From contig JAERTG010000050.1 of the NCBI GenBank assembly GCA_016845065.1, positions 129,948-193,947 of the forward strand: a stretch of DNA of 64,000 bases, written 5' to 3'. This DNA comes from Fidelibacterota bacterium (GTDB lineage: Bacteria; Fidelibacterota; UBA8477; JABMPR01). The translations under genes were made by a program, and so were the position numbers. Within the stretch, counting starts at the first letter, position 1. Each line of letters begins with the position of its first letter. Shown piece after piece: positions 3,779 to 63,869 of this stretch. The notes under the pieces were generated by a model. It saw only the letters and a list, made by a program, of their open reading frames with translations. It ran no database searches and had not been told where the DNA came from.

Positions 3779-3797
3779 TGCTTGAATGGGATCATAA

Positions 3798-6047: not shown

Positions 6048-6139
6048 CTGCAGCACCAGCTGGTTCTGCCTCTTTTATCGTACGAAAATACAGAAACAAA
6101 TTTGATTTTGGCTTAAACAGCATTTGTAATAGTTGAGTC

Positions 6140-17651: not shown

Positions 17652-18649
17652 GAGTAGCAATCAATGGATTCGGTCGTATCGGTCGTTCCGTATTTCGCAT
17701 TTTAGATAAACGTGATGACATAAATGTTGTCGCAATAAACGACTTGTTTGAGCGGGAAGCCCTGGCTTATCTGCTTAAATATGATACGGTTATGGGTGGG
17801 TTTGGCGATGCATCAGTCCACTTGAAAGAGGATGTTCTCCACACCGCCAATGATACTGTAAAGATGATCAGCGAACGTAATCCTGCAGACCTACCCTGGA
17901 AAGAATTGGATATCGATGTTGTAATCGAGGCTACTGGTGTCTTCAGAACCAAAGAATCCCTAACACCACATTTAACTGCCGGTGCAAAACGTGTCATCCT
18001 GACTGTCCCTTCAAAGGATGAAGTGGATTACACAGTAGTATTGGGTGTAAATGAGGATGGACTGAAACCAGAGCATAGAATTGTATCAAATGCCAGTTGT
18101 ACAACAAACTGTTTGGCCCCGATGGCTAAAGTTCTTAATGATGCTTTTGGTATCGTTGAGGGTGTGATGACTACAACACATGCCTACACCAATGATCAGC
18201 GTCTTGCTGATGTTCCTCACTCAGACTGGCGTCGTAGCCGTGCAGCTGCTGAAAACATTATTCCAACAACCACTGGTGCTGCCCGTGCAGTAGGAAAAGT
18301 ACTTCCTGAACTGAAGGGTAAGTTGGATGGTATTGCAGCTCGAGTGCCTGTAGCTGATGGTTCAGTTGTTGATCTCATTGTTGAATTGAACCGAAACGTG
18401 ACTGTTGAGGATATCAATGCAGCAGTTCGTGAAGCTACTAAGACTGATCGTCTGAAGGATGTTCTTGAATATAACGAAAACCACCTGGTCTCTTCTGATA
18501 TTATCGGAAATCCGTACTCCTCTATATATGATGCATCATATACACGGGTGGTGGGAAATCGAATTGTCAAAACACTGAACTGGTACGACAATGAGTGGGG
18601 TTACTCAAACCGCGTTGTTGACCTGATTAACTTGTTTAAGGGTATGTAG
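17648..18649 (+). CDS. gap: Glyceraldehyde-3-phosphate dehydrogenase, type I (canonical)
   Basis: INGFGRIGR, SNASCTTNCLAP, and WYDNEWGYS are all present. Confidence 0.95.
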   Translation: MRVAINGFGRIGRSVFRILDKRDDINVVAINDLFEREALAYLLKYDTVMGGFGDASVHLKEDVLHTANDTVKMISERNPADLPWKELDIDVVIEATGVFRTKESLTPHLTAGAKRVILTVPSKDEVDYTVVLGVNEDGLKPEHRIVSNASCTTNCLAPMAKVLNDAFGIVEGVMTTTHAYTNDQRLADVPHSDWRRSRAAAENIIPTTTGAARAVGKVLPELKGKLDGIAARVPVADGSVVDLIVELNRNVTVEDINAAVREATKTDRLKDVLEYNENHLVSSDIIGNPYSSIYDASYTRVVGNRIVKTLNWYDNEWGYSNRVVDLINLFKGM

Positions 18650-22554: not shown

Positions 22555-22992
22555 CTAATGCCTTTTGCTCATTTTCTCAAACTTCTTTGCCAATTCATCC
22601 CGCTGTGAATCGTCTAGACTTGCATGGAAATCAGCATAATCTGAGACCATGGTTTTGCGAAAAGCGCTAAACTCATTTTCAATCTCATCAAATTGCATGT
22701 TTAGTGCATCCACATCCATTCGAGCTGTTCTGAGATTCTCATTCAATGAGGTACGCAACCCAGCGTGATTCGCTTGCATACCCTCCTTGAAGAATGCAGC
22801 ATTTTCCAGGACAACTTGAAGTTTTCCTTGCTGCATCTCATTCAGATCGAGTTTCTTGGTAATCCGCTTCATCATTTTGGTTTGATCCATGTTGTGTGGA
22901 CCTCGATGAACTCCACAGGCTGCTATTCCGAGGATGAGGGCAACTACGAGAATACCCATTCCTATTCTTTTATTCAGATTTACTCTTTTCAT
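22555..22992 (-). CDS. Periplasmic Spy/CpxP/ZraP-family (LTXXQ-type) stress protein
   Basis: Signal peptide MKRVNLNKRIGMGILVVALILGIAAC. A helical domain carrying LNEMQQGKL and LDDSQRDEL repeats. Start moved to the internal M so it does not overlap the upstream gene. Confidence 0.6.
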   Translation of the reverse strand: MKRVNLNKRIGMGILVVALILGIAACGVHRGPHNMDQTKMMKRITKKLDLNEMQQGKLQVVLENAAFFKEGMQANHAGLRTSLNENLRTARMDVDALNMQFDEIENEFSAFRKTMVSDYADFHASLDDSQRDELAKKFEKMSKRH

Positions 22993-22996
22993 ATCC

Positions 22997-23329
22997 TTAA
23001 TCCTTTTCTTCTTTAGCAGATTCTGCAGGTGTTTCATCTTCAGCACGAACTTCTTGATGATGCTTCAATTCAATTTTTTCCTTCAAGTGAGATTTCCAGG
23101 GACGATGACTGTGGGATTTATTATGACGATTCCCACCATGACCGCTGGAAAACAAAATCTTAGAAAGAATAATGAGCCCCAGAGCTTGCCAATATGTTAT
23201 TACTGGACCACTAAACAGCGTGGGAATTAACCAATTCCAGAGTAACATAGTAATTGCTGGGAAGAGGGTGATGGCGGCAATCACAAAAAATGCTATGCCA
23301 ATAAATTTACCTTTTGATGGTTTACACAT
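22997..23329 (-). CDS. Small 2-TM membrane protein with a His-rich segment; candidate anti-sigma factor or metal sensor
   Basis: Sits immediately downstream of the ECF sigma gene with a 23-nt gap. Two hydrophobic helices, then HGGNRHNKSHSHRPWKSH and an acidic tail. Confidence 0.5.
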   Translation of the reverse strand: MCKPSKGKFIGIAFFVIAAITLFPAITMLLWNWLIPTLFSGPVITYWQALGLIILSKILFSSGHGGNRHNKSHSHRPWKSHLKEKIELKHHQEVRAEDETPAESAKEEKD

Positions 23330-33087: not shown

Positions 33088-34431
33088 ATGCACCAATACA
33101 TACCCAACACTGAAGACGAACAACTGAAGATGCTCAATGAGGTGGGAATTGCCTCATTTGAAGAACTCCTGGATAGTATCCCCAAGGACTTACGCTTTGA
33201 AGGTGATCTTCCTTTACCTCCAGCGAAATCTGAAATCGAGCACAAGCAGGACGTGCTGAGCATCCTTTCGGGGGACGCCAGCACAGCTTCTCATGTCTCA
33301 TTCTTGGGAGGGGGAAGCTACGATCACTTTATTCCCCATATCGTAGATGTATTGATTAGTCGCTCGGAGTTTTATACAGCCTATACACCATATCAGGCTG
33401 AAGTGTCTCAAGGCACTCTCCAGGCCATGTATGAATATCAATCAATGATTTGCGAACTTACCGGTATGGATTTGGCTAATTCGTCCATGTATGATGGTGC
33501 TAGTGCTATGGCAGAGGCATGTTTGTTAGCAGCTCGTCATACGCGACGCAAAAAAATACTAATCTCCAGAAGTGTAAATCCCATCTATGTTGACGTAGCT
33601 ATTACATATGCCCATTATCAAGGATTAGAATTTGATTTCATTAATTTGGACGAAGGTGTTACCTCACTTAATTCATTGTGTGGTCAACTCAATGCTGATA
33701 TAGCCGGGGTTGTGATTCAGAACCCCAATTTCTATGGTGGCCTTGAAGATTTGGCAGGCATCAAGGAAAGTATTGAAGATAAGAAGATTCAGCTAATTGC
33801 CGTGGTTAACCCCATCAGTCTGAACCTGCTGGAAGCTCCTGGTAAACTCGGAGTGGATATCGCTATTGGAGAGGGACAGTCCCTTGGAAATCATCTTAGC
33901 TTTGGTGGTCCTTATCTTGGTTTTATGGCGGTCAAGGAACCCCTTATTCGGAAAGTCCCAGGTCGAATCGCTGGTGAAAGTGTCGACGTACATGGTAACC
34001 GGGCATTTGTCATGGTACTTCGTACTAGAGAACAGGATATTCGTCGAGAAAAAGCCACCTCAAATATTTGTACTAATCAAGGACTGAACGCATTGGCTGC
34101 CTGTATTTACATGTCCACTCTGGGCAAGAATGGTATGAGGAAGGTCGCCGAACTAAGTGTGCAAAAAGCCCACTATCTGGCTGAAGCAATCAATGATCTC
34201 CCAGGTTTTTCGCTCAGGACCGAACTTTTTTTCAATGAATTCGTCATTGAAGTCCCTGGGGAAGCCAAAACTCTTGTTTCAAAGGCATCTGGAGCAGGAT
34301 TTTTTCCAGGAATTGCCTTGAGTCAATTTGAGAAGGATTCTGATAACCAGCTGCTTGTCGCTGTGACAGAAAAACGTAGCAAGAGCGAGATGGATAATCT
34401 GGTATCATTTCTGAAAGGGTATTCAGTTTGA
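33088..34431 (+). CDS. gcvPA: Glycine dehydrogenase (aminomethyl-transferring) subunit 1
   Basis: N-terminal MHQYIPNTEDEQLKML and the PLP-fold core. gcvPB is absent from this window. Confidence 0.9.
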   Translation: MHQYIPNTEDEQLKMLNEVGIASFEELLDSIPKDLRFEGDLPLPPAKSEIEHKQDVLSILSGDASTASHVSFLGGGSYDHFIPHIVDVLISRSEFYTAYTPYQAEVSQGTLQAMYEYQSMICELTGMDLANSSMYDGASAMAEACLLAARHTRRKKILISRSVNPIYVDVAITYAHYQGLEFDFINLDEGVTSLNSLCGQLNADIAGVVIQNPNFYGGLEDLAGIKESIEDKKIQLIAVVNPISLNLLEAPGKLGVDIAIGEGQSLGNHLSFGGPYLGFMAVKEPLIRKVPGRIAGESVDVHGNRAFVMVLRTREQDIRREKATSNICTNQGLNALAACIYMSTLGKNGMRKVAELSVQKAHYLAEAINDLPGFSLRTELFFNEFVIEVPGEAKTLVSKASGAGFFPGIALSQFEKDSDNQLLVAVTEKRSKSEMDNLVSFLKGYSV

Positions 34432-35171
34432 GTGTCTATGAACAAATGCTGGCAACCAAGTCTTCCAAAGGTGCTGGTTATCTGGTTCTGGTTGATCCCG
34501 ACCGCTGGGATTTGGATGAAGTTGAAGTATTCATAAATAAAATTAATAATTCTGGAGCTGATGGGATCATGGTGGGCAGTTCACTCATTCTTGGTGAAGG
34601 TGCCCAACGAAAAGTGAAACGGATTCAGGAAATTGCTACCTTACCAGTCATTCTTTTCCCTGGAAACGTAAACCAGTTGACACCTCATGTTGATGCCGTG
34701 TTCTATCTCTCAGTTATTAGCGGGCGCAATCCCCAATTTCTTATCGGTGATCAAGTTCAAGCCGCACCTGTAGTGAGAGAGCTCGGGATTGAACCAATGG
34801 CTACAGCCTACATGCTTATCGAAAGCGGTCGAGTCACCACGGCTGAGTTTGTCAGTGGTTCTAAGCCAATCCCCAGGGATAAGGATGAAATCGCTGTTGC
34901 ACACGCCCTGGCAGCTGACTATCTCGGTTTCAAGTTCATCTATCTTGAAGCAGGGAGCGGTGCCCAATATTCAGTTACACCTCAGATGGTAAAAGCCGTC
35001 ACTTCCTATACAGATGTCCCGGTTATCGTTGGTGGAGGTATCCATAGTCCAGATGTAGCCGCAACCCTTGTTCAAGCTGGTGCCTCATTTGTGGTGACAG
35101 GTAATGTTCTTGAAGATCCAGAGAACTCACATCTAATGGAAGCTTTTTCCAAAGCTATCCATAATAGCTAG
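34428..35171 (+). CDS. GGGPS/PcrB-family (hepta/geranylgeranyl)glyceryl-phosphate synthase, archaeal-type ether-lipid prenyltransferase homolog
   Basis: (beta/alpha)8-barrel family motifs LVDPDR, FIYLEAGSGA, and VIVGGGIHSPD...VVTGNVLED. The start is TTG at 34428 or ATG at 34446, coupled to the gcvPA stop. Confidence 0.8.
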   Translation: MSVYEQMLATKSSKGAGYLVLVDPDRWDLDEVEVFINKINNSGADGIMVGSSLILGEGAQRKVKRIQEIATLPVILFPGNVNQLTPHVDAVFYLSVISGRNPQFLIGDQVQAAPVVRELGIEPMATAYMLIESGRVTTAEFVSGSKPIPRDKDEIAVAHALAADYLGFKFIYLEAGSGAQYSVTPQMVKAVTSYTDVPVIVGGGIHSPDVAATLVQAGASFVVTGNVLEDPENSHLMEAFSKAIHNS

Positions 35172-36368: not shown

Positions 36369-37601
36369 ATGATCTTGAAAAATACATTCTATACGGATTG
36401 GGATTGTGAATCGATGGGGGAACGTCACCTCCCTGAGAATGAATATCGCAATGCCTTTGAAATTGACCGCGACCGGATCATTCATTCCACAGCGTTTCGA
36501 CGTCTGCAGGGGAAAACGCAGGTCTACGTGACAGGACAATCTGACCAATATCGTACCCGGCTGACACATTCCATTGAGGTTGCCCAAATTGGTAGATCAA
36601 TTGTAAACTATCTAAATAGAAGTTCGGAGCTATTGACAGCAGATTATCAGATTGATTCTGCCCTCGTGGAAGCTGCTTGTCTAGCTCATGATCTGGGCAA
36701 CCCACCCATTGGTCATAAGGGAGAATCCCGCTTAAATGAACTCATGGATGAATGGGGTGGTTTTGAGGGCAATGCTCAATCATTACGCATTCTAACAGAT
36801 ATTGTCAGGGGTGATCGCCGATATTACTCAAATGCAGGTATGCAAGCCACCCGTGCTTGTCTGGATAGTATACTGAAGTATAAAATTGTTGGTAAGCAAT
36901 ACACGGAAAATGGTGCGAAGTTTCTATACCCTGATCAGCAGGATATTATATCCTGGGTACACCAAGACCCTGCACTCGACGATTTAGTGCAAAGCGGAAC
37001 CCAGGTTCGCCCCATTGAGTGTGCAATTATGGATCTTTCTGATGACATTGCCTACACTACCTCTGATTTGTTTGATGGTGTAAAACAGAGCTTGTTAACA
37101 ACTGAACAAGTGGAGCGATTCTGGCTTGATCAGTATCCTCAAGCGAGCCAAAAAATCAGAGCTGATGTGGATCAAGTATTGAGAAATCAGTTCCCCATGT
37201 CACGCTTTATTGCAGGACTCATTGGGAGATGGATTTATTCAATTTCCCTCATTTCCATAGAAGCTCCCTATCTTGATGTTCCTCGATACAAGTATGGGTT
37301 GGAGATGGCAGAAGAGTCTCATTCAGATCTCATGGCTCTGAGATCCTTAAATTATAACTTGATTTATAATTCAGACTATGTGAAAATTCCAGAATCAAAA
37401 GGTGTAGAGATTCTGGAAGAACTGTTTCTGTATTTCCGAGATGTAATATTTAAGAAACGAGATATACTCGAACCCTTGCCTTTGCCGGCAGGGATATCAG
37501 ACGATTTTGATGAGAATCAGAAAATGCGCATGGTTTGTGATTTTGTAGCGGGAATGACGGACAATCATGCAATTCGGCTCCATTCCTGTCTTATAGCTTG
37601 A
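36369..37601 (+). CDS. dgt: dGTPase-family deoxynucleoside triphosphate triphosphohydrolase (HD domain)
   Basis: HD domain residues THSIEVAQIGRSI...AHDLGNPPIGH. Confidence 0.85.
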   Translation: MILKNTFYTDWDCESMGERHLPENEYRNAFEIDRDRIIHSTAFRRLQGKTQVYVTGQSDQYRTRLTHSIEVAQIGRSIVNYLNRSSELLTADYQIDSALVEAACLAHDLGNPPIGHKGESRLNELMDEWGGFEGNAQSLRILTDIVRGDRRYYSNAGMQATRACLDSILKYKIVGKQYTENGAKFLYPDQQDIISWVHQDPALDDLVQSGTQVRPIECAIMDLSDDIAYTTSDLFDGVKQSLLTTEQVERFWLDQYPQASQKIRADVDQVLRNQFPMSRFIAGLIGRWIYSISLISIEAPYLDVPRYKYGLEMAEESHSDLMALRSLNYNLIYNSDYVKIPESKGVEILEELFLYFRDVIFKKRDILEPLPLPAGISDDFDENQKMRMVCDFVAGMTDNHAIRLHSCLIA

Positions 37602-48637: not shown

Positions 48638-49666
48638 ATGACCTTTGATGAGTTATATCTGAAGATGAAGAATTTAATGAAAACATTGTTAAGTGGGATG
48701 TCGCTCCTGATAATCCTGGGAAGCTGTAGCGATATGGGTGAACCAGAGATTCTGTTACCACAGATGGAAGTAGAAACAACCCTAATTGATTTCTCTACTG
48801 TAACCATTGGATCTCCCCAAACGAGACAGATTCTGATTGTTAATACTGGTGAAGGTGAGCTTAAGGGTGACTTGAGTCTGGTTCAGGACAGTTCTGTATA
48901 TGCACTTCAGCCCAACGGCGCATTTACTCTATCCAATGATGACACTCTGGTAGCTGAATTATCTTTTACTCCTTCTGCTGAATTTACATATACTGCTCAA
49001 ATTATAATCAGCAGTGACGACCTGGGAAATCCTGAACATGTAGTTGATCTTAACGGCGTGGGCACAGCCTTACCCGTACCAGCACTGACCGTTTCAAGCA
49101 CCAGCTTGAATTTTGGAACCATACTGACTGATAGTAGTAGCCAACAGCAAATCACTCTTAGTAGTACAGGAAATGATACCTTGTTGATTTCATCAATTGC
49201 TTTTGACCTGTCTGCTTATCGTGTTGATGTGGGCACACCACTCGAACTGATTCCTGGTGCTTCGCAAACTCTGACTATCACCTTTCATTCTGATGAAGCA
49301 GGAACCTTTAATGGGAACCTTTCTATTGTATCAAATAGCCCATCCACACCGGATGTTGTCTCACTCTCAGGCGTGACGGAAGCAGCTGTGAGTTATGCAG
49401 CAGCGATCCAGCCAGTTTGGGACGCCAGTTGTGGTGGGTGCCATGGTTCAAATGGTGGATTAAATTTAACATCGTATAATAATCTCATGTTGGGAACCTC
49501 TTCCAACGGACCTGCTGTGATTCCTTTTGATGGTGCAAATAGTTTGATCATCAGACGAATTGATGGGACAACTGGTGGACTTATGCCACAGGGCGGTCCT
49601 TCTCTCTCAGCAAGTACCATTGCTACAATTGAAACGTGGATCAACCAGGGAGCGCTAAACAATTGA
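48638..49666 (+). CDS. Lipoprotein with Ig-like (HYDIN/ASH-type) repeats and a C-terminal PSCyt1-type mono-heme cytochrome c domain
   Basis: Likely start MKTLLSGMSLLIILGSCSD at 48677. Heme-binding CGGCHG, followed by the pattern ...GGLNL...GPAVIPFDGANSLI...GGLMPQGGPSLS...IETWINQGA typical of the Planctomycete cytochrome C domain. Confidence 0.6.
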   Translation: MTFDELYLKMKNLMKTLLSGMSLLIILGSCSDMGEPEILLPQMEVETTLIDFSTVTIGSPQTRQILIVNTGEGELKGDLSLVQDSSVYALQPNGAFTLSNDDTLVAELSFTPSAEFTYTAQIIISSDDLGNPEHVVDLNGVGTALPVPALTVSSTSLNFGTILTDSSSQQQITLSSTGNDTLLISSIAFDLSAYRVDVGTPLELIPGASQTLTITFHSDEAGTFNGNLSIVSNSPSTPDVVSLSGVTEAAVSYAAAIQPVWDASCGGCHGSNGGLNLTSYNNLMLGTSSNGPAVIPFDGANSLIIRRIDGTTGGLMPQGGPSLSASTIATIETWINQGALNN

Positions 49667-50754
49667 AATTACTTATTCGAATTACTCTCATTAGTCTAAC
49701 TACTGCTAGTCTTTTCGCACTTCCCAGGTTTGCCATGATGGAGGAAGTCAGTTGTGGAACCTGTCATTCCTACCAGGGTGGTGGTGGCAACAGGACTGCG
49801 TATGGAGAAGAATATGCCCGAGAAAGTCTAATCATGCGAGATTTCTCACTGCCCTGGGAGAATGAGGACAATGATTTCCCCGTTTATTTTGGTGCAGATA
49901 CAAGATATCAAATGATTGCTCAGGCAGATGAAGACCTGAGGCAGTTTCCCATGCAGTTTTCACTCTATGGTGGGGTTGAACTGGGTAGTCTCATCGCGCA
50001 TGCTGAAGTTTCCAGGATATCTGAGGAAATTAGAGTAGCGGGTGGTCTCAGGTATGAGGAGTTGCCACTTGAGAGTTGGGTTGGTCTGGCCAAGGCAATG
50101 CCGGTCTTGGGATGGAGGATAGATGATCATAGCATTTTTACCCGCGGTGGCAACCTGACACTCCAGGGCCTTTCCCGTGAGGGCATGCCGTATACTCCAT
50201 TTATGGAATCACCTGAAATGGTTCAGTTTGGAACTTCCTTCATCTATGGATTTGATCTAACGTTCATGGCAGGTACTCCATTTATTGATCCGACCAGGAC
50301 ACTCGATGCCAAGCTCTTTAAGGCTGCGAAAATGAATTACCAACTATCTGGAGATCTTTTTTCAGCCCAGATAGGTCTGGCATATTTTGACGAGAATGAT
50401 CTGATAAGCGGATCCGTTGCCAGCTGGGGTTTGTCTAGTCATGGATTTGTCTGGTTGGGTGAGTGGTCTCAAATGAATGGATGGATACAACCTGAAATCA
50501 CCAACTTAGCCACGATGCATCAATTGAGTTACCGCTTATTTCAGGGTTTGGATCTGGTTGGGCGCTATGAATTTTTTGATCCTGACGTTGATCTTACCAC
50601 TGGTGCCATCCAGCGAACCAGTCTGGGTGTAGAGTTTTTTCCTCTTCGAAGTGTAGAGATGAAATTGAGTTATCGGACCAGCACGCTAGATTTACCTGAT
50701 AGCAGTCCTGATTCCGAATCACAGATATTGAGTCAGATTCACTTCTATCTCTAG
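49636..50754 (+). CDS. Putative outer-membrane beta-barrel protein with an N-terminal CXXCH heme motif
   Basis: Probable TTG start at 49663 (in frame), giving the signal peptide KLLIRITLISLTTASLFA. CGTCHS lies just after the signal. Amphipathic beta-strands run to the C-terminus (...LSQIHFYL). Confidence 0.5.
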   Translation: MDQPGSAKQLKLLIRITLISLTTASLFALPRFAMMEEVSCGTCHSYQGGGGNRTAYGEEYARESLIMRDFSLPWENEDNDFPVYFGADTRYQMIAQADEDLRQFPMQFSLYGGVELGSLIAHAEVSRISEEIRVAGGLRYEELPLESWVGLAKAMPVLGWRIDDHSIFTRGGNLTLQGLSREGMPYTPFMESPEMVQFGTSFIYGFDLTFMAGTPFIDPTRTLDAKLFKAAKMNYQLSGDLFSAQIGLAYFDENDLISGSVASWGLSSHGFVWLGEWSQMNGWIQPEITNLATMHQLSYRLFQGLDLVGRYEFFDPDVDLTTGAIQRTSLGVEFFPLRSVEMKLSYRTSTLDLPDSSPDSESQILSQIHFYL

Positions 50755-50800: not shown

Positions 50801-51856
50801 CTATTTCTGCAGGGAAATGCGTGGTTCAGCGCTTGAATTGCTGATTTCGCCAATAATTGTAGCCTCACTAACATCATTGGCATGAAGATCTTCAATGAAG
50901 GCTTCGGCATGGGTCGCTGGGATACTTACCAGTAGACCGCCAGAAGTCTGGGGATCAACTACCAATAATTCTTCCAATCTGTTGACATTCACTCCAACCG
51001 ACAACCGAGGTTTGTAGAAGGCGTGATTGTTTTTTAACCCACCTGGCACCACTTTTTGTTCAGCGTAATCATAGGTTCCTGGGAGGACAGGAAGTTGGTC
51101 TATAAATATTTTTGCATCCATAAAGCTGGAATCCAACATTTCCAGCAAGTGACCAACCAAACCATAGCCTGTCACATCGGTCATGGCATTTACATTGTAT
51201 TTCGCCACCACATCGGCTGCATACTTATTCAATTTGATCATGCTTGCAATCATGGAGTCCAGCTGATCGGGAGCGATTATCTTGCGTTTCAACGCTGTGG
51301 CAACAATCCCAGTACCCAGAGGCTTGGTGAGAACCAGTACATCTCCAGGTTGAGCTCCACCATTCGAAATAATTTTGTCAGGGTGGACTACTCCTGTGAC
51401 AGAGAGTCCATATTTTAACTCATCATCCTTTATTGAATGCCCCCCTGCAAGTACCGCACCTGATTCGTTGATCTTACTCAGACCTCCACGCAGAATATCT
51501 CGCAGCACGGAATTGTCCATATCATCCACAGGGAAACCAACGATGTTCAATGCAGTAATGGGTTTAGCACCCATGGCATAGAGATCACTAAATGCATTAG
51601 CTGCAGTGATTTGTCCAAATGTGAATGGATCATCCACAATAGGTGTAAAGAAGTCTAAAGATTGGACAACAGCAATGTCCTCACTCACCTTGAAAGCAGA
51701 GCTGTCATCGCGATGGTCAATCCCTACGAGCAGGTCGGGATGTGATGGAATATCAATCCCGCAAAGTATGTCGTCCAGGTCCCCTGGACCGATTTTACCT
51801 GCTCAGCCAGCGGCCTTGACTTTTGCGGTTAGATTTATTTCTAAGCTTCTTGTCAT
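50801..51856 (-). CDS. selD: Selenophosphate synthetase (selenide, water dikinase), selenocysteine-containing form with in-frame TGA at 51803..51805
   Basis: The ORF track starts at 51688. Manual translation upstream gives MTRSLEINLTAKVKAAG-U-AGKIGPGDLDDIL..., which aligns with the E. coli SHGAGCGCKISP region and places TGA (Sec) at Cys17. The rest matches SelD along its length. Confidence 0.85.
51773..51789 (-). promoter_or_regulatory. SECIS-like hairpin, 13 nt 3' of the selD UGA
   Basis: Perfect inverted repeat GUCCAGG-GGA-CCUGGAC on the mRNA. The plus strand reads gtccaggtcccctggac. Confidence 0.55.
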
Positions 51857-51957
51857 CTACAGAAAATAAGCAGAGCAATTCAGCAGCCAATGCCAAAAGC
51901 TAGCTGATTTGATTGTTTTAGTATTGAATTCCCAGGACACTTATCCTAAGATCACAG

Positions 51958-53793: not shown

Positions 53794-54039
53794 TTTTACA
53801 AACCCCTCAAATGTTGACTGATGAATTATTAATTGATCAATCAATTCTCTTCGGACCCAATTTTGTTGTGCGTATAAAGTGTTGTCCAAACACTGCCTTA
53901 CTCTCCTTGGGTTTTCTCAAAATTGTTGATAAGGTGTATGGAAATATTGTTGACAAGGGTAGGGGGGAACCATAAATTGAAGAAACGTAACTCAGGAAAG
54001 GGTTACTAAAATTAAAAGCATGGGGTTAAGTTGTTTCTG

Positions 54040-56943
54040 ATGACTAGATTTTTTCGCATTTTACTCCGTCTAATTACAGTAGCGTATCTTGTGAGTTCCT
54101 TTTCGATTGCTGGTACAACTGGTAAAATCTCTGGTACAGTAAGAGATGCAGAAAGTCTCGAAGGCCTCATTGGATGTAATGTTATCGTTGACAAAACACG
54201 GTTTGGAGCCTCTGTGGACCTTGATGGGAGTTTTTATATTATTGGCCTCGAACCTGGAGAGTATTCACTCACTGCTACCATGATTGGATATCAACAAGTT
54301 CGCCTATCTGAAGTACAGGTGCGTGCTGATCTAACAACCAATGTGGAGTTTGAACTACCATCAACTATTCTGATGTCAAGCGAAGTGGTTGAAGTTGTCG
54401 CGAAACGTGAAACTATCGTAAAGGATTTAACTGCCACCTCGGCTATCGTGTCATCTGAACAGATCGCCTCAATGCCAGTGACTGATATGGGGGATATCAT
54501 TAACCTCCAAGCTGGAATGGTTGATGGTCACATGCGGGGGGGACGCTCAGGTGAGGTTGCATATTGGATCGATGGCATCCCTGTTACTGATGTTTATGAT
54601 GGTGGTCAAATGTTTGAAGTATCCAAGGACTTAATCCAGGAGCTTCAGGTTATCTCAGGTGCTTTTAACGCTGAATATGGTCAGGCAATGTCAGGTATTG
54701 TCAATGTAACGACTAAAACCGGATACAAGGACTGGGGGGGTAATCTATCAGTCTACACAGGAGACTATCTGAGCCGTCATAATGAACTCTATATGGGTAT
54801 TGATGAGTTCAATCCCATTACCATCAAGAATCTCGACCTCTCCCTTCATGGCCCCATTATAAAAGACAAATTAGATATTAGCATTTCTCTCAGGGATGTT
54901 TATTGGCAAGGATGGCTCAATGGCCGGCACCAATTTAATCCTTGGGCTGTTCCGGTTATTGGATTCGATGGTTTAACCTCTCTGGGAGTCGATGCCCAAC
55001 TGGATTCACTCGTGACGAGTGTTTTTACAGAAATACCTGATCAGGGACCCATGAGTGATGATGAATACGCTGCTCTGAAAGACAGTCTCTTTGCGGATGG
55101 ATATGCAAAAGTTCATGGAAATCATTTGGATTCCATGGGTGATGGTGAATACAAACCCATGCAATGGAATCATCGTCAATTTTATCATGGACGTGTAAAC
55201 TGGTATCTATCCCCAGGATTAAGGTTGTCCTTTCAAGGCTCCTATACTGATGTTACCTATCAGGATTATGAGCGATCCTATCGATTAAATCCTTATGGCG
55301 ATTTGACCCGACAGACTCAAAGCTATAATTACCTTGCAAAATTGATGCACAGTTTGAACACGAACAGCTATTATTCTATTGGTCTTTCGAGGGCTACTAA
55401 AACATACTTCCATTATAACGCTGATGATTATGTTGTGTATGATGAAATGGGAGCCCCCATGCATTCGTACGCTTTTCCAACTTCCGGTACAAACAATGGG
55501 CGATTTAATAGAGTGAGTCTCACAGACCTCATCAAGATCGATTATGTGAATCAACTGACTTCTCATCACCAAATGAAAGCTGGAATTGAATACCGTCAAC
55601 ACTTGCTAACGCTTCAGGACAGTACCTTGCAGCCTCCTTCTGATAAAACCACTCTCAATCCAGTCTTTGATGATCCTCGCATTGCCGATCCTCGTATCCT
55701 TGATATTTCCACCATTTATAACAGTCAGTACGAACACCAACCCATTGAATTCTCAGCATACATTCAGGATAAAATCGAACTCAAGGAACTCATCATTAAT
55801 ATCGGTGTGCGTATGGATTACTTCAAACCAGATGGTCATGTCTTAGCTGATCCATCTGATCCTAGCATTTACGAACCACTTCGATTGAATAACATCTACC
55901 ATGATACTGATAGCGATGGTGTTTATGGTAATGAAAGTGATGCGCTTAAAACTGTGGCTGAGCGAAGTGAATATTGGTATGTGGCAGCCGAAGATAAAGT
56001 GCAGATTAGTCCAAGATTCGGAGCAAGTTTCCCAGTGACTGATAAGGGTGTGATTCATGTTTCCTATGGCCATTTCCTGCAGATTCCTCGGTTTGAACAT
56101 CTCTATCGCAACCCTGATTTTGATCTGGACAGTGGAACTGGGAACATTGGTGTCATAGGAAATGCAGACTTAAAGCCTGAAAAAACAATTTCAGGAGAAA
56201 TCGGAGTTACACAGGAAATTATGGACGGTGTGAGTCTTGATTTGACTGGCTACTTTAGAGATATCCGTAATTTGATTGGGACGAACTCTGAACAGATTGA
56301 AATTTTTGGTGGATCAGCCTTTTACAGCAAAATTGAAAACAGTGATTTTGCATATGTGAAGGGCATGGTGCTGGCATTGAACTATTACAATTCGAACGGA
56401 ATATCTGGCAACATTGATTACACCTTCCAGGTAGCTGAAGGAACTGCGTCTGATGCGGAAGAGGCCAGAAATTCCGTAACAGGTGGAGCTGAGCCAGGCA
56501 TCTATATTCGAGCTCTTAATTGGGATCAAAGGCACACTGTGAATCTGTCAGTAAACTATAATGCAGCATTTTGGGGTGTAAGTACCATCGGAGCCATGGG
56601 CAGCGGTCTACCCTATACACCGAATCTAGCTGCTGAAAATACACTTCTGACAAATAGCGCAACCAAGCCAATCACTCTTAATCTCGATTTGAACATTTAC
56701 TACAAATTCAAAGTGTTCAACAAAGAAAGTCAAGTATTCTTGAGAGTTCAAAATGTCCTGGATCATTTGAATCAATCGGGTGTCTATGATAAGACAGGAG
56801 TGGCAGATTTTACTCCAGATGAGCAACAAGTTAGAAACCTCAATGTAGATGAGTCCGTGAATACTGTTGAAGAGTGGTTCCGCAACGAAACTTTCTACTC
56901 TGAACCGCGACGCATTGAATTGGGATTGGGGCTTAATTTCTGA
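54040..56943 (+). CDS. TonB-dependent outer-membrane receptor (SusC-like, CarbopepD_reg N-domain)
   Basis: Signal peptide. The N-domain GKISGTVRDAESLEGLIGCNVIVDKTRFGASVDLDGSFYI. Plug and barrel. Ends ...LGLGLNF. Its stop overlaps the next gene's ATG (TGATG). Confidence 0.85.
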   Translation: MTRFFRILLRLITVAYLVSSFSIAGTTGKISGTVRDAESLEGLIGCNVIVDKTRFGASVDLDGSFYIIGLEPGEYSLTATMIGYQQVRLSEVQVRADLTTNVEFELPSTILMSSEVVEVVAKRETIVKDLTATSAIVSSEQIASMPVTDMGDIINLQAGMVDGHMRGGRSGEVAYWIDGIPVTDVYDGGQMFEVSKDLIQELQVISGAFNAEYGQAMSGIVNVTTKTGYKDWGGNLSVYTGDYLSRHNELYMGIDEFNPITIKNLDLSLHGPIIKDKLDISISLRDVYWQGWLNGRHQFNPWAVPVIGFDGLTSLGVDAQLDSLVTSVFTEIPDQGPMSDDEYAALKDSLFADGYAKVHGNHLDSMGDGEYKPMQWNHRQFYHGRVNWYLSPGLRLSFQGSYTDVTYQDYERSYRLNPYGDLTRQTQSYNYLAKLMHSLNTNSYYSIGLSRATKTYFHYNADDYVVYDEMGAPMHSYAFPTSGTNNGRFNRVSLTDLIKIDYVNQLTSHHQMKAGIEYRQHLLTLQDSTLQPPSDKTTLNPVFDDPRIADPRILDISTIYNSQYEHQPIEFSAYIQDKIELKELIINIGVRMDYFKPDGHVLADPSDPSIYEPLRLNNIYHDTDSDGVYGNESDALKTVAERSEYWYVAAEDKVQISPRFGASFPVTDKGVIHVSYGHFLQIPRFEHLYRNPDFDLDSGTGNIGVIGNADLKPEKTISGEIGVTQEIMDGVSLDLTGYFRDIRNLIGTNSEQIEIFGGSAFYSKIENSDFAYVKGMVLALNYYNSNGISGNIDYTFQVAEGTASDAEEARNSVTGGAEPGIYIRALNWDQRHTVNLSVNYNAAFWGVSTIGAMGSGLPYTPNLAAENTLLTNSATKPITLNLDLNIYYKFKVFNKESQVFLRVQNVLDHLNQSGVYDKTGVADFTPDEQQVRNLNVDESVNTVEEWFRNETFYSEPRRIELGLGLNF

Positions 56944-59900
56944 TGAATACCAAGCTGAATATTTACACGATCAAAATAATTTTCATTATACTTTTTATTA
57001 CCCCGGGACTAATTGCCGAAAGTGGAAGAGCCCACCGAAAGAACGCAGTCCATAAGGGAAACCTTGTTAAGACTGTCTTTGGAAACTGGGGCGTAGTTGG
57101 ACAACCATCTGGAAAGGGACCTCGAGGTGCCTGGATACACGATAATAATGGATATGTAGGGGATGTAAGTCCGTTGGTTGGAGCGCAAATCACGACTCAT
57201 GATACTTCTGGAAATGAGAGAACATTTCATACCGTCGTAGTATCTCCTGTCAGTCGACCTTCGAACGGTGGACATGAGATAAGCCCTTCTGGTAAACAGT
57301 GGGGTTTTGAACCTGTGTCTGGTTACGCCAATCCTGATCAATCTTCCATCGCCATGAGTACAAATCCTCAGAGCTGGCCTTCAATCTGGCCAGATGAGCC
57401 TACTTGGGCAGGAACCTGGAATGGGTATTTTGGGCAAATTTCCAACGCCTCTGAGGAAAGTTATTATGTCATGGATGATGCCAATGACGAAGAATTTAAC
57501 TTTGCAGAAAATAATAATTACCGTGTGGCTTTTAAACCCGATAGTACAGATACAGAACGCAATGGTCTAGGATTGGAAGTCAAAGTAAGAGGCATGCAGT
57601 GGGGGCAATTTCTTGCCCAGGATGTAATTTTCTGGCTATATGAAGTAACCAATACAAGCACCACTGATTATGATCAGATCGTTTTTGGAATGCTTGTGGG
57701 AACCTATGTTGGTGTTACCGGTACGGATGATACTCCCAATGAATATGATGATGATTGGTCATTCTTTGATGTGGAGCGGGATTTGACGTTTACTGGTGAT
57801 TTTGACAATAATGTTTCCCGCAACTCGAATTGGGTTGGCAACGAAGTAGGCATGGTGGGATATGCTTTCTTGGAAAGTCCAGGAAATCCTTTTGATGGCA
57901 TCGATAATGATCGAGATGCAGCTGAATATGGTGACGCTGATTTCTTTGAAGAGGAAGATTTTCAAAACCGCGTGTTAAATCTTGGTGATGAGCTCATTCT
58001 CATTGATGATCAATTTAATCGCTCCTCACATTTTCTCTCCGCCGGGCCAGACACGTTAACTAGTAGGGGTTTGGTTCTGGTGGTCTCACCTGGTGATACC
58101 TTGCTTCCAGAGGGTAATGAAGTTTTAGCGCCCCATGCTGTCAATAGCAGTGATTTAGTTGTGAATGGCAATGCTGTTGATGGTCTTGATAATGATTTTG
58201 ACGGTTTGATTGACGAGAATTATTATCTCCACTACCGTCAGGTAAGGAAGGACCAGGAGGGCAATATTCTCTTTGATATTCTCAATCCTACAGCCTTTGT
58301 GAACTACGTGACAGGCATGGGATCTTTGAATCCCATGATTGATGAAAAACGTGATGATCTTGAAGACAATGATGGAGATTGGATCGCGGAATTTGATGAT
58401 GTTGGTTCTGATGGAGTTCCTGGAACGGATGATTTAGATGGAACTGAGGGAAATGGTTGGCCTGATGTAGGAGAACCCAATTTTGATCACACAGACCCCG
58501 ATGAATCAGACCAGATCGGTCTATCAGCATTTAATTACTTCGCACCTGCCGGTGATATCGAGATGCATAACGACGAAGGTCTCTGGGATATGATGGAACC
58601 GGGCTATTTTGATGTACCTGCATCTATACAGAACGGAAGACCCGTAGCTGGTGAAGATGGTGATTTTGTCTATAGCTCTGGATATTTCCCCCTCCAGGCT
58701 GGACAAACTGAAAGATTCTCCATCGGGCTGCTCTACGGTGAAGATCAGGCGGATTTACTGAAAAATTTGGCCACAGTTAAAAATATTTACGATAGTGATT
58801 ATCGCTTCCCAACAGCCCCACTGAAACCTACCGTATCTGCAGTAGCAGGAGATGGTTCCGTCACATTGTACTGGGATAGAAGAGCGGAAGAATCCATTGA
58901 TCCTGTATTGAAAATCAAGGATTTTGAGGGATATAAAATTTATCGAGCAACAGATCCTAACTTTAATGATATTCGAAATATCACCAACAGCCTAGGTGTA
59001 GTGGAAGGCTATGAATTTCTGGATCAGTTTGACCTGATCAATGAGTACTCCGGTCCTTTCTACCCAAGTGAAGATTTATTTACTCAGAGTGATGGTTATA
59101 CATTTTATCTGGGAGACAATTCAGGTCTGCAACATAGTTTTACAGATAACGACGTCCTCAACGGCAGAACATATTATTATGCAGTTGTTGCTTATGATCG
59201 TGGAGATGGAGATTCGGATATATTTCCATCAGAGAACACGAAATTTGTAGCGATTTCACCATCAGGTGAGGTGACTTTAGACCAGAATACTGTAATGATT
59301 GTGCCAGGTCCTACTCCACCAGGATACACTTCATCAATGGGCATAATTCCAATCGATCACGTTTCACCTGTGGGGACTGGTAATGTTCAGGTGAATGTGA
59401 TAGATCCTGATGCCCTCAAAGATCATGTCTATATCCTCAGCTTTAAAGATATGGCCACAGATGGCGTGGATAATGACGGGGATTGGAACGCTGCTACTGA
59501 CGATGTGGGAACGGATGGTGTTGCTGGAACAAATGATGTAGATGGCAGTGAGGGGGATGGTCTGCCTCAAGACGGTGAGCCCAATTTCGAATTTAGTGAC
59601 GCTGAGGAGCTCAACAGACTCACTACTTCTTATTCAGTTTTAGATTCCACCGGTTTTAATGTGGCATTTGAACCTCTGGATACCCTGTATGTTCAACTTG
59701 GTGTAAAAAATATTGTGGAATCTAGTGTACAATTGGTAGATGAGAGCGGAAACACCGTGCCCTCTGCAGAATTTGATCTGAGAAGCGAAAGCGGGGCAAT
59801 ACGAGCTTCATCAACAGGAAGTCTTCCATATGATAGTTATACATTATCTGGTCAATACTATCCAGTTTTTGAAAGCCCTTACGTATACGACTCACCATTT

Positions 59901-60815
59901 GTGAGTGAGGCATTTGACAGTGATATTTTTGATGGTCTAGAACTCTATTTCGAGAATGATTGGGATGTTGAGCTCATTGATTCTCTTACAGGTTGGAACA
60001 CCCTTGATAAATATGATTTCATTTTTGGAACCACGATTATCAATCTTGGTGGGGGTGTGTCTTTATATCCCATCAGATATCCGTCAAACTATCAAATAAC
60101 TTTCACAACTGATCCTGAATATATCGCCAATGATTCTACCTTTATGGTTGATTTCTTTGGAGGTGCACAAAATGAGAATCTGGCTGTCAATTTCCAGCTT
60201 GAAAACGTAACAGGAGGGTATAGCCCACAAATCCTGTTTGATGATCAGGATAGCAATGGGAAACTCACCAGCGGTGATGTCATATTGATTTTTGATCAAG
60301 ATATTAATGGCAATTATTTTTACACCTGGAACATTGTTTTTAGAGATTCGCCTACATACCCCGACTTGGATACAGTTTTTACGTTTACGGAAGCTGATAC
60401 AATATTTGTAAATACTACCCAACCTTTCCGTGATGGGGATGTGTTCGTATTTAGTCCTGAGATTCCCCGGATTGAAACTACCACAATAAAGGAATCTCTC
60501 GATGACATCAAGGTCTTCCCCAATCCCTACATAGCAGCTAATATTTTTGAGCACCCCCTATCTCCAGGCATTACAAGTGGAAGAGGGGAGAGACGAGTCA
60601 CCTTTACCCATATCCCTTATGATGCTTCAATTCACATTTATACTGCCCGTGGGGATCACGTGAAAACCCTGGTGAACGATAGTTCCATCGAAAACTCCAT
60701 GGTGAATTGGAATCTCAAAACAAAAGAGAATCTGGAGATTGCCTACGGTATCTATTTTTATGTCGTGGATACAGAATTTGGACGTAAAACTGGCAAACTG
60801 GCGATTGTGAAGTAG
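56943..60815 (+). CDS. Large secreted surface protein (1290 aa) with internal Ca-binding-like repeats and a T9SS C-terminal sorting domain
   Basis: Signal peptide. Two ~40-aa repeats reading DNDGDW...DDVG[ST]DGV.GT.D.DG[ST]EG.G.P..GEPNF. The C-terminal ~80 aa follow the T9SS CTD pattern (KVFPNPY...IYFYVVDTEFGRKTGKLAIVK). Confidence 0.7.
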   Translation: MNTKLNIYTIKIIFIILFITPGLIAESGRAHRKNAVHKGNLVKTVFGNWGVVGQPSGKGPRGAWIHDNNGYVGDVSPLVGAQITTHDTSGNERTFHTVVVSPVSRPSNGGHEISPSGKQWGFEPVSGYANPDQSSIAMSTNPQSWPSIWPDEPTWAGTWNGYFGQISNASEESYYVMDDANDEEFNFAENNNYRVAFKPDSTDTERNGLGLEVKVRGMQWGQFLAQDVIFWLYEVTNTSTTDYDQIVFGMLVGTYVGVTGTDDTPNEYDDDWSFFDVERDLTFTGDFDNNVSRNSNWVGNEVGMVGYAFLESPGNPFDGIDNDRDAAEYGDADFFEEEDFQNRVLNLGDELILIDDQFNRSSHFLSAGPDTLTSRGLVLVVSPGDTLLPEGNEVLAPHAVNSSDLVVNGNAVDGLDNDFDGLIDENYYLHYRQVRKDQEGNILFDILNPTAFVNYVTGMGSLNPMIDEKRDDLEDNDGDWIAEFDDVGSDGVPGTDDLDGTEGNGWPDVGEPNFDHTDPDESDQIGLSAFNYFAPAGDIEMHNDEGLWDMMEPGYFDVPASIQNGRPVAGEDGDFVYSSGYFPLQAGQTERFSIGLLYGEDQADLLKNLATVKNIYDSDYRFPTAPLKPTVSAVAGDGSVTLYWDRRAEESIDPVLKIKDFEGYKIYRATDPNFNDIRNITNSLGVVEGYEFLDQFDLINEYSGPFYPSEDLFTQSDGYTFYLGDNSGLQHSFTDNDVLNGRTYYYAVVAYDRGDGDSDIFPSENTKFVAISPSGEVTLDQNTVMIVPGPTPPGYTSSMGIIPIDHVSPVGTGNVQVNVIDPDALKDHVYILSFKDMATDGVDNDGDWNAATDDVGTDGVAGTNDVDGSEGDGLPQDGEPNFEFSDAEELNRLTTSYSVLDSTGFNVAFEPLDTLYVQLGVKNIVESSVQLVDESGNTVPSAEFDLRSESGAIRASSTGSLPYDSYTLSGQYYPVFESPYVYDSPFVSEAFDSDIFDGLELYFENDWDVELIDSLTGWNTLDKYDFIFGTTIINLGGGVSLYPIRYPSNYQITFTTDPEYIANDSTFMVDFFGGAQNENLAVNFQLENVTGGYSPQILFDDQDSNGKLTSGDVILIFDQDINGNYFYTWNIVFRDSPTYPDLDTVFTFTEADTIFVNTTQPFRDGDVFVFSPEIPRIETTTIKESLDDIKVFPNPYIAANIFEHPLSPGITSGRGERRVTFTHIPYDASIHIYTARGDHVKTLVNDSSIENSMVNWNLKTKENLEIAYGIYFYVVDTEFGRKTGKLAIVK

Positions 60816-60828
60816 GGTGGTGAAGCAG

Positions 60829-61827
60829 ATGAAATCAAAAATTATCGTACTTTTTGTACTACCTCTACTCATTTTTGGACAGGCAAAAGTTGGAACAAGC
60901 GCTGCACCTTTTCTGGGCATCGATGTTGGTGCTGTAGGTATCGCTATGGGGGGTAGTCAGGTTGCTCGAGCCCAGGACGCTTCAACCATCTATTGGAATC
61001 CAGGTGCTGCAGCTCAACTCCAGGGCAATCATCTACAATTCACCAGCAGCAATTGGTTTGTCGGTTCAAAATTTCAATATGCTGCTGGTATAATCAAAAT
61101 CTCTTCATCAGATGCCATTGGTCTGAGCTTTACTGTACTGGACTATGGTGAGGAGGAAATCACCGATGTATACAACCAGGAGGGTACGGGTCAATACTGG
61201 CAAGCAAGTGATTTATCCATTAGCTTGAATTACTCACGTATGCTCACTGATCGATTCTCAATCGGTGGAACAGGTAAATATATCCAACAGAAAATATGGC
61301 ATGAAACTGCATCATCCATGGCATTGGATGTGGGTATCCTCTTCCGTACCCAGTTGTCCGGTCTCCAGATTGGTATGAGTATATCTAATTTTGGTGCGAA
61401 TATGATCCTGGATGGAGCAGATCTGTTAACCCGAATCGACATTGACCCAGAGAATACGGGGAATAATGAAACACTGGTTGCTAAATTAAAGGTAGATGAC
61501 TGGCCCTTGCCTTTATTTTTTCGTCTTGGAGTAGCGTACGAGTATTCATTGGGTTCTACTACATCCATCACCTTTCTAACTGATGCTCTGGTTCCTTCTG
61601 ACAATGTGGAAGTTATAAATACTGGAGTTGAGGTTGGTGTACTTGATAAATTTTTTATCAGAACTGGTCTGAAAAATATCGGAAATGATGACAGTCTGAT
61701 TAATTACTCAGCTGGGGCTGGTTTGAAGCTTCCCGTCAATAGAAATATGGTGAGCTTTGATTACAGTATGCAGGAGTATGAATATTTTGGGTTAATCCAT
61801 ACTTATGGTGTGGAATTTACATTTTAA
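60829..61827 (+). CDS. PorV/PorQ-family T9SS-associated outer-membrane beta-barrel protein
   Basis: ATG at 60829. Signal peptide. N-terminal signature GTSAAPFLGIDVGAVGIAMGGSQVA. The barrel ends ...YGVEFTF. Confidence 0.6.
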   Translation: MKSKIIVLFVLPLLIFGQAKVGTSAAPFLGIDVGAVGIAMGGSQVARAQDASTIYWNPGAAAQLQGNHLQFTSSNWFVGSKFQYAAGIIKISSSDAIGLSFTVLDYGEEEITDVYNQEGTGQYWQASDLSISLNYSRMLTDRFSIGGTGKYIQQKIWHETASSMALDVGILFRTQLSGLQIGMSISNFGANMILDGADLLTRIDIDPENTGNNETLVAKLKVDDWPLPLFFRLGVAYEYSLGSTTSITFLTDALVPSDNVEVINTGVEVGVLDKFFIRTGLKNIGNDDSLINYSAGAGLKLPVNRNMVSFDYSMQEYEYFGLIHTYGVEFTF

Positions 61828-61856: not shown

Positions 61857-63869
61857 ATGCGCTTTATAGCTACACTAACCCTTTCACTGATGATGATAGT
61901 TTCTCTTTCAGCTGATGTGAATGTAACCTTCCGTGCAAATACAGCATTTGTACCGGATACCCTTAACGCAATGAGCTCCGTTCAAATGCGCGGTGCTCTA
62001 CCAACCCTGACATGGGACAACACATCCCCTGTTATCTTCACCAACGTGGGTGGAGATTACTGGGAAGCTACCATGACTGTTCCAGATGCAACGGTTGGAG
62101 AATACAAATTCTTTACTAATTCGCTTCCAGGTCCCATTGACGCTGCTTGGGGTGGCTGGGAAGGTGATCCAAACAGGACCTTAGATCTTTCAGGTTTCTC
62201 AGGATCTGATACCACACTGCCCTTGCAGTATGTGAATGGTTATGAAAATGGTGCCTCACAATTCGATCCACCTTATGAAACCAATGACTCAACCATTGTT
62301 GTACACATTCGTGTAAATATGCAGGGTTGGGAAGATTTCAATGATGAAACCATGTGGGTAGGTGCCCGCGGAGGATTCGGTGACCTGGATTGGGGCTCAA
62401 CCATGTGGCTCACCCAGGAATCACCTCATGTAAATGGTGGTAGCCAACAGTACAATGCGGATAACTTCTATTCTGCTAATGTCCGCGTTCCGCTGGCTGA
62501 TGCAACGGGTAGCAATGGTTTCAAGTTTGTGGTCCACGCTGCCGGTTCTGAACCAACACAGGACTGGGGTGATATGCTTTACAACCCTAATGGAGACATC
62601 CCTGCTAGCTATTCTGGTGCGGATACCACCCTCTATTGGAGCTGGTTCGCTGGTCTTGAACCTGCTGGTTTTACAGGTACAGATACTACCCCTCTGACCT
62701 TCAAGGCTGATTTTTCAACAACAATTGCTGAAAATGGATACGCAATCGGTGACTCTGTCATCGTGCGTTATGGCTATTTTGGGTCTGCTGGTGAAGTAAG
62801 CGAAGCTGGACTTACAAAAGAAGGTTTATTTGGCAATGAATATTCCGTTAGAATTCCTGAAGTAACTGTGAATTTTGGTGAGAAACTATATTACCAGTAT
62901 TATAAACTGGATGAAAGCCTAGCTGAATATCGGGAGATCTACTTCAATTTTGACTACGCAGGTGATACACCTTCAGAGGCGGAGCGTCGTGAAGTCATTG
63001 TCACTGCAGCTGATACCACGATCATGGATGTGGTCGTTAGTACCGTAGATTCACGCCGTCAGCCACTCTTCCGCAACACCAACGCTGTTGGTCAGCATGT
63101 AACCGTGTCTTACACCGTCGATATGCGTCCAGCTTACTGGCACGTTGACGCGGGTGTAACTTTAGAAGATATACAGGGAAATCTTGATATCTCTAGAGCC
63201 GGACAAATTGACAGCCTGGGCGTGTTTATGAATGGTCCAGCCACTGGTGGTTGGTCTGGTTGGGGTTTGGATCTTGCTTCACTTGAAGAAAAACAACTCT
63301 TTGATGACGGAACTCATGGTGATGTCACAGCCGATGATGATGTCTATACCCTTCAGTTTGAATACGCACCAGATAGCTCCAACAATGTTATCGGACAGGA
63401 ATTCAAGTTCGGTATTGGTGGTGGCGACAATGAAAGCAATTACGGTCTGAATCACGTTGAGAATATCAATGATGCCAATGATACGTATACAATTGCTTCT
63501 GCTTGGGGTAGTATTAACCCGAATTTTTATTCACTATGGGACTTTGACAACATGATTGGTCTGGTCGGTGTGGATGAATTTGTTGCTCCTAATGCCCTTA
63601 GTCTGTCACAGAACTACCCCAACCCATTCAACCCAACAACAAACATCAGCTATATCTTGCCACAAGCTGGCCATGTTGAATTGGTAATTTATAATGCTCT
63701 TGGTCAGGAAGTACGGACCTTGAAAGCTGGATACAGCAATGCTGGAAGCTATTCTGTTAATTGGAATGGTCTTGATCATGCTGGTAACAGCGTTGCCAGT
63801 GGTCTGTATATTTATACTTTGACCACCGGTGATCAAAGCATTAGCAAGAAAATGCTCATGCTGAAATAA
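61857..63869 (+). CDS. Secreted multi-module carbohydrate-binding protein (CBM20/25-like starch-binding modules) with T9SS C-terminal sorting domain
   Basis: Signal peptide. Repeated beta-sandwich modules with W...GxW...EYKF-type motifs. Canonical T9SS type-A CTD LSQNYPNPFNPTT...YSVNWNG...ASGLYIYTL. Confidence 0.7.
   Translation: MRFIATLTLSLMMIVSLSADVNVTFRANTAFVPDTLNAMSSVQMRGALPTLTWDNTSPVIFTNVGGDYWEATMTVPDATVGEYKFFTNSLPGPIDAAWGGWEGDPNRTLDLSGFSGSDTTLPLQYVNGYENGASQFDPPYETNDSTIVVHIRVNMQGWEDFNDETMWVGARGGFGDLDWGSTMWLTQESPHVNGGSQQYNADNFYSANVRVPLADATGSNGFKFVVHAAGSEPTQDWGDMLYNPNGDIPASYSGADTTLYWSWFAGLEPAGFTGTDTTPLTFKADFSTTIAENGYAIGDSVIVRYGYFGSAGEVSEAGLTKEGLFGNEYSVRIPEVTVNFGEKLYYQYYKLDESLAEYREIYFNFDYAGDTPSEAERREVIVTAADTTIMDVVVSTVDSRRQPLFRNTNAVGQHVTVSYTVDMRPAYWHVDAGVTLEDIQGNLDISRAGQIDSLGVFMNGPATGGWSGWGLDLASLEEKQLFDDGTHGDVTADDDVYTLQFEYAPDSSNNVIGQEFKFGIGGGDNESNYGLNHVENINDANDTYTIASAWGSINPNFYSLWDFDNMIGLVGVDEFVAPNALSLSQNYPNPFNPTTNISYILPQAGHVELVIYNALGQEVRTLKAGYSNAGSYSVNWNGLDHAGNSVASGLYIYTLTTGDQSISKKMLMLK

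Follow-up and report, generated by a model that had tools for sequence, protein, structure and literature searches.

A predicted selenocysteine codon in selD of an uncultured marine Neomarinimicrobiota bacterium and the truncated annotation of its selenophosphate synthetase

Selenocysteine-containing forms of SelD whose SECIS element lies within the coding region have been known for many years and are among the most abundant selenoproteins of marine metagenomes. Of the prokaryotic SelD genes, 19% encode selenocysteine (Sec), always at the same position and with a bacterial SECIS element (bSECIS) in the coding sequence (Mariotti et al., 2015; PMC4561486). Together with FdhA, SelD is the most widespread of the bacterial selenoproteins (Zhang et al., 2006; PMC1794560). 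The consensus model of the bSECIS comprises an apical loop of 3-9 nt with a G in the first two loop positions, an upper stem of 4-16 bp, a distance of 16-37 nt between the UGA and the loop, and a minimum free energy (MFE) of -7.5 kcal/mol or below (PMC13188914 Fig. 2, a 2026 review).

The selD gene described here occupies positions 50801..51856 on the minus strand of a 64-kb window, that is, the whole stretch of 64,000 nucleotides that was analysed, from an uncultured marine member of the Neomarinimicrobiota (Marinimicrobia/SAR406). It is an ordinary member of the well-known Sec-type SelD family and possesses every defining feature that was tested. Like the Sec-type bacterial SelDs represented by the Aquifex aeolicus enzyme (2yye/2zod) and covered by the Mariotti 2015 and Zhang 2006 surveys, it belongs to TIGR00476, carries its UGA within a G-U-A-x-K motif and has a bSECIS stem-loop inside the CDS directly after the UGA. 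Nothing of substance sets it apart from these genes: it is a copy from a metagenome-assembled genome (MAG) of an uncultured lineage, it stands alone instead of in a sel operon, and it is truncated in public databases. Because Sec-type SelD is already widespread, the gene represents a routine annotation correction and calls for no new mechanism.

On the minus strand, the sequence that begins with the ATG at 51854..51856 translates as MTRSLEINLTAKVKAAG, followed by a TGA at 51805..51803 and then by AGKIGPGDLDDIL and the rest of the protein. The frame runs from this ATG to 50801 over 352 codons, namely 351 codons and a TAG stop, and the TGA at codon 18 (51803..51805) is its sole interruption. Directly 5' of the ATG lies an in-frame TAG (51857..51859). 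In the mechanical ORF list, SelD is represented by a 295-aa frame on the minus strand (50801..51688) that starts with the GTG at 51686..51688. This GTG is codon 57 and specifies a valine in the real protein, and ORF and gene callers take it as the start. The preliminary description of this DNA had already pointed out that the ORF track begins SelD at 51688 and loses the N-terminal loop, which agrees with the frame found here.

The identity of the protein is well defined. For the protein searches the TGA was read as Cys, and the resulting 351-aa product matched the NCBIfam SelD equivalog TIGR00476 with 376.4 bits (cut-off 125) over residues 9-315. It also matched NF002098 of NCBIfam with 341.5 bits (cut-off 299), with residues 6-345 corresponding to profile positions 5-342 of 347. 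The Pfam families AIRS (PF00586) and AIRS_C (PF02769) were found at residues 50-157 (81 bits) and 169-341 (75.9 bits), respectively. Alignment with the SelD of E. coli (3u0o) extended over residues 7-338 with E = 1.6e-69, and alignment with that of A. aeolicus (2yye/2zod) over residues 8-329 with E = 7.7e-67. Both alignments run through the TGA and give the same pairing, in which U18 falls on E. coli Cys17 and K21 on Lys20, so that the full-length comparison upholds the earlier proposal that the TGA corresponds to catalytic Cys17 in the E. coli protein. The catalytic Lys20 of the E. coli enzyme is thus equivalent to Lys21 here (AAA, 51794..51796, minus strand). The two proteins share the same fold and catalytic loop. 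In contrast to the UGA of the present gene, however, E. coli encodes Cys17 with TGC, and its Cys19 is replaced here by Gly20. Together these matches support the assignment of 50801..51856 to a SelD-family selenophosphate synthetase, for which ATP-dependent synthesis of selenophosphate is the predicted activity.

The conservation of the TGA was examined in relatives collected by a scan of one genome per species, which yielded 25 loci. Neomarinimicrobiota MAGs account for 14 of them, at 72-87% identity, and the remainder, at 41-49% identity, belong to Zixiibacteriota, Ignavibacteriaceae, Dehalococcoidales, Thermodesulfobacteriota and others. A TGA is present at the homologous codon in all 25 loci, which are independent assemblies, and the flanking peptide is conserved on both sides. 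Neither an error of sequencing nor a nonsense mutation private to this genome can therefore explain it, and the possibility that other strains might carry TGC or TGT at 51803..51805, which had been named as a reason to abandon the Sec reading, is contradicted. The ATG is likewise kept in 14 of 14 Marinimicrobia relatives, and both sequence conservation and codon-position bias begin exactly there. Among the 15 Marinimicrobia sequences, variable sites are spread evenly over the three codon positions in the 90 nt that precede the ATG (28/27/29), which has a non-coding look, whereas they fall mainly on third positions in codons 1-17 (4/3/14) and in codons 19-56 (12/5/30), the pattern of a coding sequence. 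Since third-position changes dominate on both sides of the TGA and not upstream of the ATG, purifying selection acts on this frame from the ATG through the TGA.

These observations bear on the possibility that the real start is the GTG at 51688, with the upstream 168 nt untranslated and a protein of 295 aa, or that the gene is a pseudogene owing to a nonsense mutation or to faulty sequencing. The output of gene callers agrees with such a start, given the 295-aa length of the deposited protein and the many relatives of 257-325 aa. The TGA in 25 of 25 assemblies and the codon-position pattern nevertheless refute a start at codon 57, a pseudogene and a sequencing error alike. Moreover, the profile and PDB alignments continue through the TGA as far as residues 7-9, and a protein beginning at codon 57 would be missing Sec18 and Lys21 as well as the conserved Asp50/Asp51. 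The probability left to this reading is negligible, and translation from the ATG through the TGA is preferred.

On the opposite strand, an ORF of 87 aa (51606..51869, plus strand) overlaps the N-terminus of selD. In each of the 14 Marinimicrobia relatives it is interrupted by one to four stops, and for this reason it is regarded as spurious, as had been suggested before. Further upstream, a GCTTATTTTC-like motif is found at 51861..51870 on the minus strand, about 5-15 nt 5' of the ATG. Most of the Marinimicrobia relatives (L001-L014) share it, although upstream sequence otherwise varies without constraint, and it could serve in translation initiation or as a promoter element. A scan for promoters and terminators returned nothing above shuffled sequences, and a 'terminator' that it proposed on the plus strand was rejected as the SECIS hairpin read backwards.

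A UGA within a conserved frame could also result from a reassigned genetic code, in which UGA would stand for Trp or Gly and position 18 would be an ordinary amino acid. Two public SelD calls from Marinimicrobia (P0042 and P0053) do have a W at codon 18, but they come from contigs of only 1.2-1.4 kb. In the 64-kb window, TGA is the stop of 11 of 32 long ORFs, and these ordinary stops indicate the standard code; no other long gene there needs TGA readthrough. In addition, position 18 is the catalytic Cys/Sec position of the SelD family. The use of stop codons in the window thus refutes a genome with code 4 or code 25, and a reassigned UGA has next to no probability compared with a Sec codon. 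A six-frame readthrough scan of the 64-kb window revealed no further convincing gene interrupted by TGA. One candidate, at 22555..23196, was discarded since both of its TGAs precede a plausible start, in a stretch that shows no coding signal.

The RNA that follows the UGA has the form of a bSECIS. An upper stem-loop on the minus strand at 51773..51789 consists of a 7-bp stem, GUCCAGG/CCUGGAC, and the apical loop GGA (51780..51782). The hairpin starts exactly 13 nt past the UGA, is part of the MFE fold and has a dG of -10.0 kcal/mol. It is contained in an extended SECIS-like element of 42 nt (51761..51802, minus strand), which begins with the first base after the UGA and adds a lower stem formed by 51796..51802 with 51761..51768. 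The earlier account of a perfect 7-bp stem with a 3-nt loop, placed 13 nt after the UGA as in bacterial SECIS elements, is reproduced at 51789..51773. In terms of the consensus model, the loop is GGA (3 nt), the stem has 7 bp, 20 nt separate the UGA from the loop, and the MFE is -16.6 kcal/mol. A check of the kind recommended at the outset, made on the mRNA after the UGA, showed that all 26 UGA-type sequences, the window and the 25 loci, fall within all four constraints. The Cys-type selD of E. coli served as a control and differs in this respect, as it has no qualifying hairpin after the corresponding codon and an MFE of -5.7 kcal/mol.

The element resembles the experimentally defined SECIS elements of E. 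coli fdhF and fdnG in that its stem-loop starts immediately behind the UGA, spans about 40 nt and bears, at a fixed distance from that codon, a small apical loop that contains G, and in that it fits the consensus bSECIS model (PMC13188914). In contrast, its primary sequence is unrelated to theirs, its loop is the 3-nt GGA, and it is a putative SelB-binding element. A bulged base, another point of comparison with fdhF and fdnG, appears in only one alternative fold of the selD hairpin region.

The stem might instead be a by-product of the codons for G-P-G-D-L, in which case it would have no function at the RNA level and the UGA would be decoded through some other, unrecognised element. Among 5,000 synonymous recodings of the same peptide, some 7-bp stem arose in about 10%. 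The GPGDL peptide therefore predisposes the RNA to form a hairpin, and a hairpin in a single sequence is by itself merely suggestive. The near-invariance of the hairpin within the close Marinimicrobia group would also agree with a codon by-product. The recodings reached an MFE of only -8.8 +/- 2.6 kcal/mol, however, compared with the -16.6 kcal/mol of the window element, and just 0.8% of them folded as stably. Further evidence comes from covariation in an ungapped alignment of the window sequence and the 25 loci. Standard pairs occupy 95% of the cells of the 7-bp stem, and four of its seven pairs have changed on both sides. In 500 column shuffles neither the pairing nor the covariation score of the real alignment was reached, and pairing fell to 11-48% when the 3' arm was displaced by 1-3 columns. 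Because the hairpin hardly varies among the close Marinimicrobia, this signal derives from the distant lineages, that is, from comparisons between phyla. The stem is GGCCAAA/UUUGGCC in Zixiibacteriota and Ignavibacteriaceae, where it encodes a different peptide, GPKFLA, and CUCCAGG/CCUGGAG in Thermodesulfobacteriota. Retention of the stem with other nucleotides and other peptides, with compensatory pairs, its stability and its absence from the Cys-type selD of E. coli lead to the rejection of a pure codon by-product, an explanation that is highly improbable. The lower stem of the extended element is paired in only 66.5% of the cells across the alignment and is weakly supported beyond the close Marinimicrobia group.

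Taken with the TGA in 25 of 25 loci and the coding conservation on both sides of it, the covarying hairpin supports the original proposal that the TGA at 51803..51805 codes for selenocysteine. On the strength of these sequence comparisons, UGA-18 very probably encodes Sec by the SelB/SECIS mechanism. The actual insertion of Sec and the binding of SelB are what we infer from them.

Translation of the Neomarinimicrobiota selD would start at the ATG at 51856. At the UGA of codon 18, the bSECIS hairpin 13 nt downstream would recruit SelB-GTP and Sec-tRNA(Sec), and selenocysteine would be inserted in place of termination. Sec18 and Lys21, which lie in the glycine-rich N-terminal loop, would then form the selenium-handling catalytic site, and the remainder of SelD would adopt the AIR-synthase-like ATP-binding fold. 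Selenophosphate, the product of SelD, is expected to feed SelA and possibly other selenium pathways. Because it feeds SelA, SelD would need its own product for its synthesis.

In the window, selD is a solitary gene. An unannotated ORF of 372 aa converges on it and a gene of the GH13 alpha-amylase family is divergent from it, and the NCBIfam annotation of 47 ORFs in the window comprises housekeeping, transport, glycan and type IX secretion genes. The convergent ORF (49636..50754, plus strand) is matched by nothing in Pfam or NCBIfam, and its N-terminal part contains CGTCH, a CxxCH motif like that of haem c proteins. It overlaps the end of 48638..49666, which encodes a choice-of-anchor D / Ig-like protein with a PSCyt1 cytochrome-like segment. 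Elsewhere on the plus strand, 16620..17651 and 17648..18649 are tandem paralogues of type I glyceraldehyde-3-phosphate dehydrogenase that overlap by 4 nt. The second scores 441.6 bits, above the GAPDH-I cut-off of 367.2, and the first, at 297.3 bits, scores below it and may be a diverged paralogue. Upstream of the pair is a TrmB-like sugar regulator and downstream are genes for GH57 and alpha-glucan phosphorylase. The product of 34428..35168 (plus) belongs to the geranylgeranylglyceryl/heptaprenylglyceryl phosphate synthase family (NF003198, 278.8 bits, cut-off 247) and is a bacterial homologue of an archaeal ether-lipid enzyme. A dGTP triphosphohydrolase is encoded at 36369..37601 (plus; TIGR01353, 304.9 bits), and an anti-phage dGTPase model also matched it below the cut-off (309 versus 400). 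Finally, a 1290-aa ORF at 56943..60815 (plus) matches no Pfam or NCBIfam family. Its neighbours are a TonB-dependent-receptor-like gene (54031..56943) on one side and, on the other, a PorV-family gene (60817..61827) followed by a gene for a protein with a T9SS sorting domain (61857..63869), and the ORF could belong to a surface or secretion locus.

The 47 annotated ORFs of the 64-kb window include no selA, selB, selU or yqeB/yqeC. Neither ARAGORN nor an Rfam scan at gathering thresholds found tRNA-Sec, or any tRNA at all, in the window, and no Rfam family was detected there. Similarly, the flanks of the 14 Marinimicrobia loci contain no tRNA-Sec, selA or selB. When E. coli SelA and SelB were compared by tblastn with the window and the 25 loci, the only match was in a Dehalococcoidales locus (L016), which possesses a compact sel cluster at 2842-6187. 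There, a tRNA-Sec with the anticodon TCA (2842..2937) lies directly upstream of the UGA-type selD, which is followed by selA (about 4143..5378) and then by the start of selB (5450..6187). The recovery of this cluster indicates that the methods detect Sec machinery where it is present. For the genome that carries the selD at 50801..51856, we infer that selA, selB and selC are located elsewhere. The Dehalococcoidales cluster around a UGA-type selD speaks for this indirectly, as do two SAR406 single-cell genomes placed among the Sec-utilising organisms (Peng et al., 2016; PMC5029168 Table S2).

The same negative results are compatible with a different outcome of decoding, in which a SECIS/SelB-type mechanism reads the UGA but inserts Cys or another residue. 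This could happen by means of a tRNA-Sec-like tRNA charged with Cys or by near-cognate readthrough after the loss of selA. There are reports of such tRNA-Sec-like tRNAs in nature that place Cys at UGA codons, and the lack of Sec machinery in the 64-kb window and the Marinimicrobia loci would be expected. This outcome would also be consistent with three SAR406 single-cell genomes (JGI 0000059-D20, JGI 0000059-E23 and SCGC AAA003-E22) assigned to the 'orphan SelD' class, no selenium gene besides selD having been found in them (Peng et al., 2016; PMC5029168 Table 1). In contrast, the same study places two other SAR406 single-cell genomes among the Sec users and credits them with 1 and 5 known selenoproteins (Peng et al., 2016; PMC5029168 Table S2). 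Furthermore, the UGA and the SECIS are preserved in just the form seen where a full sel cluster is present, for example in the lineage of the Dehalococcoidales locus. A change from TGA to TGC would give Cys without any machinery, so the retention of the UGA in 25 loci argues for Sec. Single-cell assemblies are typically incomplete, and incompleteness is therefore the simplest explanation of the 'orphan SelD' label in SAR406. If the orphan genomes carry the UGA-type selD of all 15 Marinimicrobia sequences, the label is probably an artefact of incomplete assembly. Insertion of Cys or another residue is thus very unlikely, and Sec remains the preferred reading of codon 18.

We give equally little credence to the idea, which the 'orphan SelD' label of the three SAR406 genomes might prompt, that the Neomarinimicrobiota have a UGA/SECIS-type selD without canonical selA, selB and selC and decode the UGA in a non-canonical way. 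If this were true, the UGA might be decoded, for example, by a Cys-charged tRNA-Sec-like tRNA or by a divergent factor. SelD itself would then act in some other selenium pathway, as yet unknown.

The reading of UGA-18 as Sec has its main consequence for annotation. It had been anticipated that a standard gene caller would produce a selD truncated at its 5' end, and this is what the databases contain. The deposited protein for the exact sequence (P0001, NCBI, on a contig of 193,962 bp) is the 295-aa truncation, and nearly all close SelD homologues in a collection of 5.8 billion proteins are 257-325 aa long. Two 295-aa forms, P0004 and P0121, occur on 170 and 104 contigs, respectively, and the second is named 'selenide,water dikinase' at JGI. 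The few public Marinimicrobia SelD calls of 350 aa (P0042 and P0053) read AAGWAGK, with Trp at the Sec UGA, and apparently result from a gene caller that applied code 4 to the short contigs.

The value of the finding lies in this correction, because selD proteins on hundreds of marine contigs are recorded without the catalytic N-terminus or with Trp in place of Sec. As a result, metabolic reconstructions of Marinimicrobia underestimate their dependence on selenium. The presence of a UGA-type selD alone indicates that a lineage decodes selenocysteine, and in this way the gene marks the Neomarinimicrobiota as Sec users.
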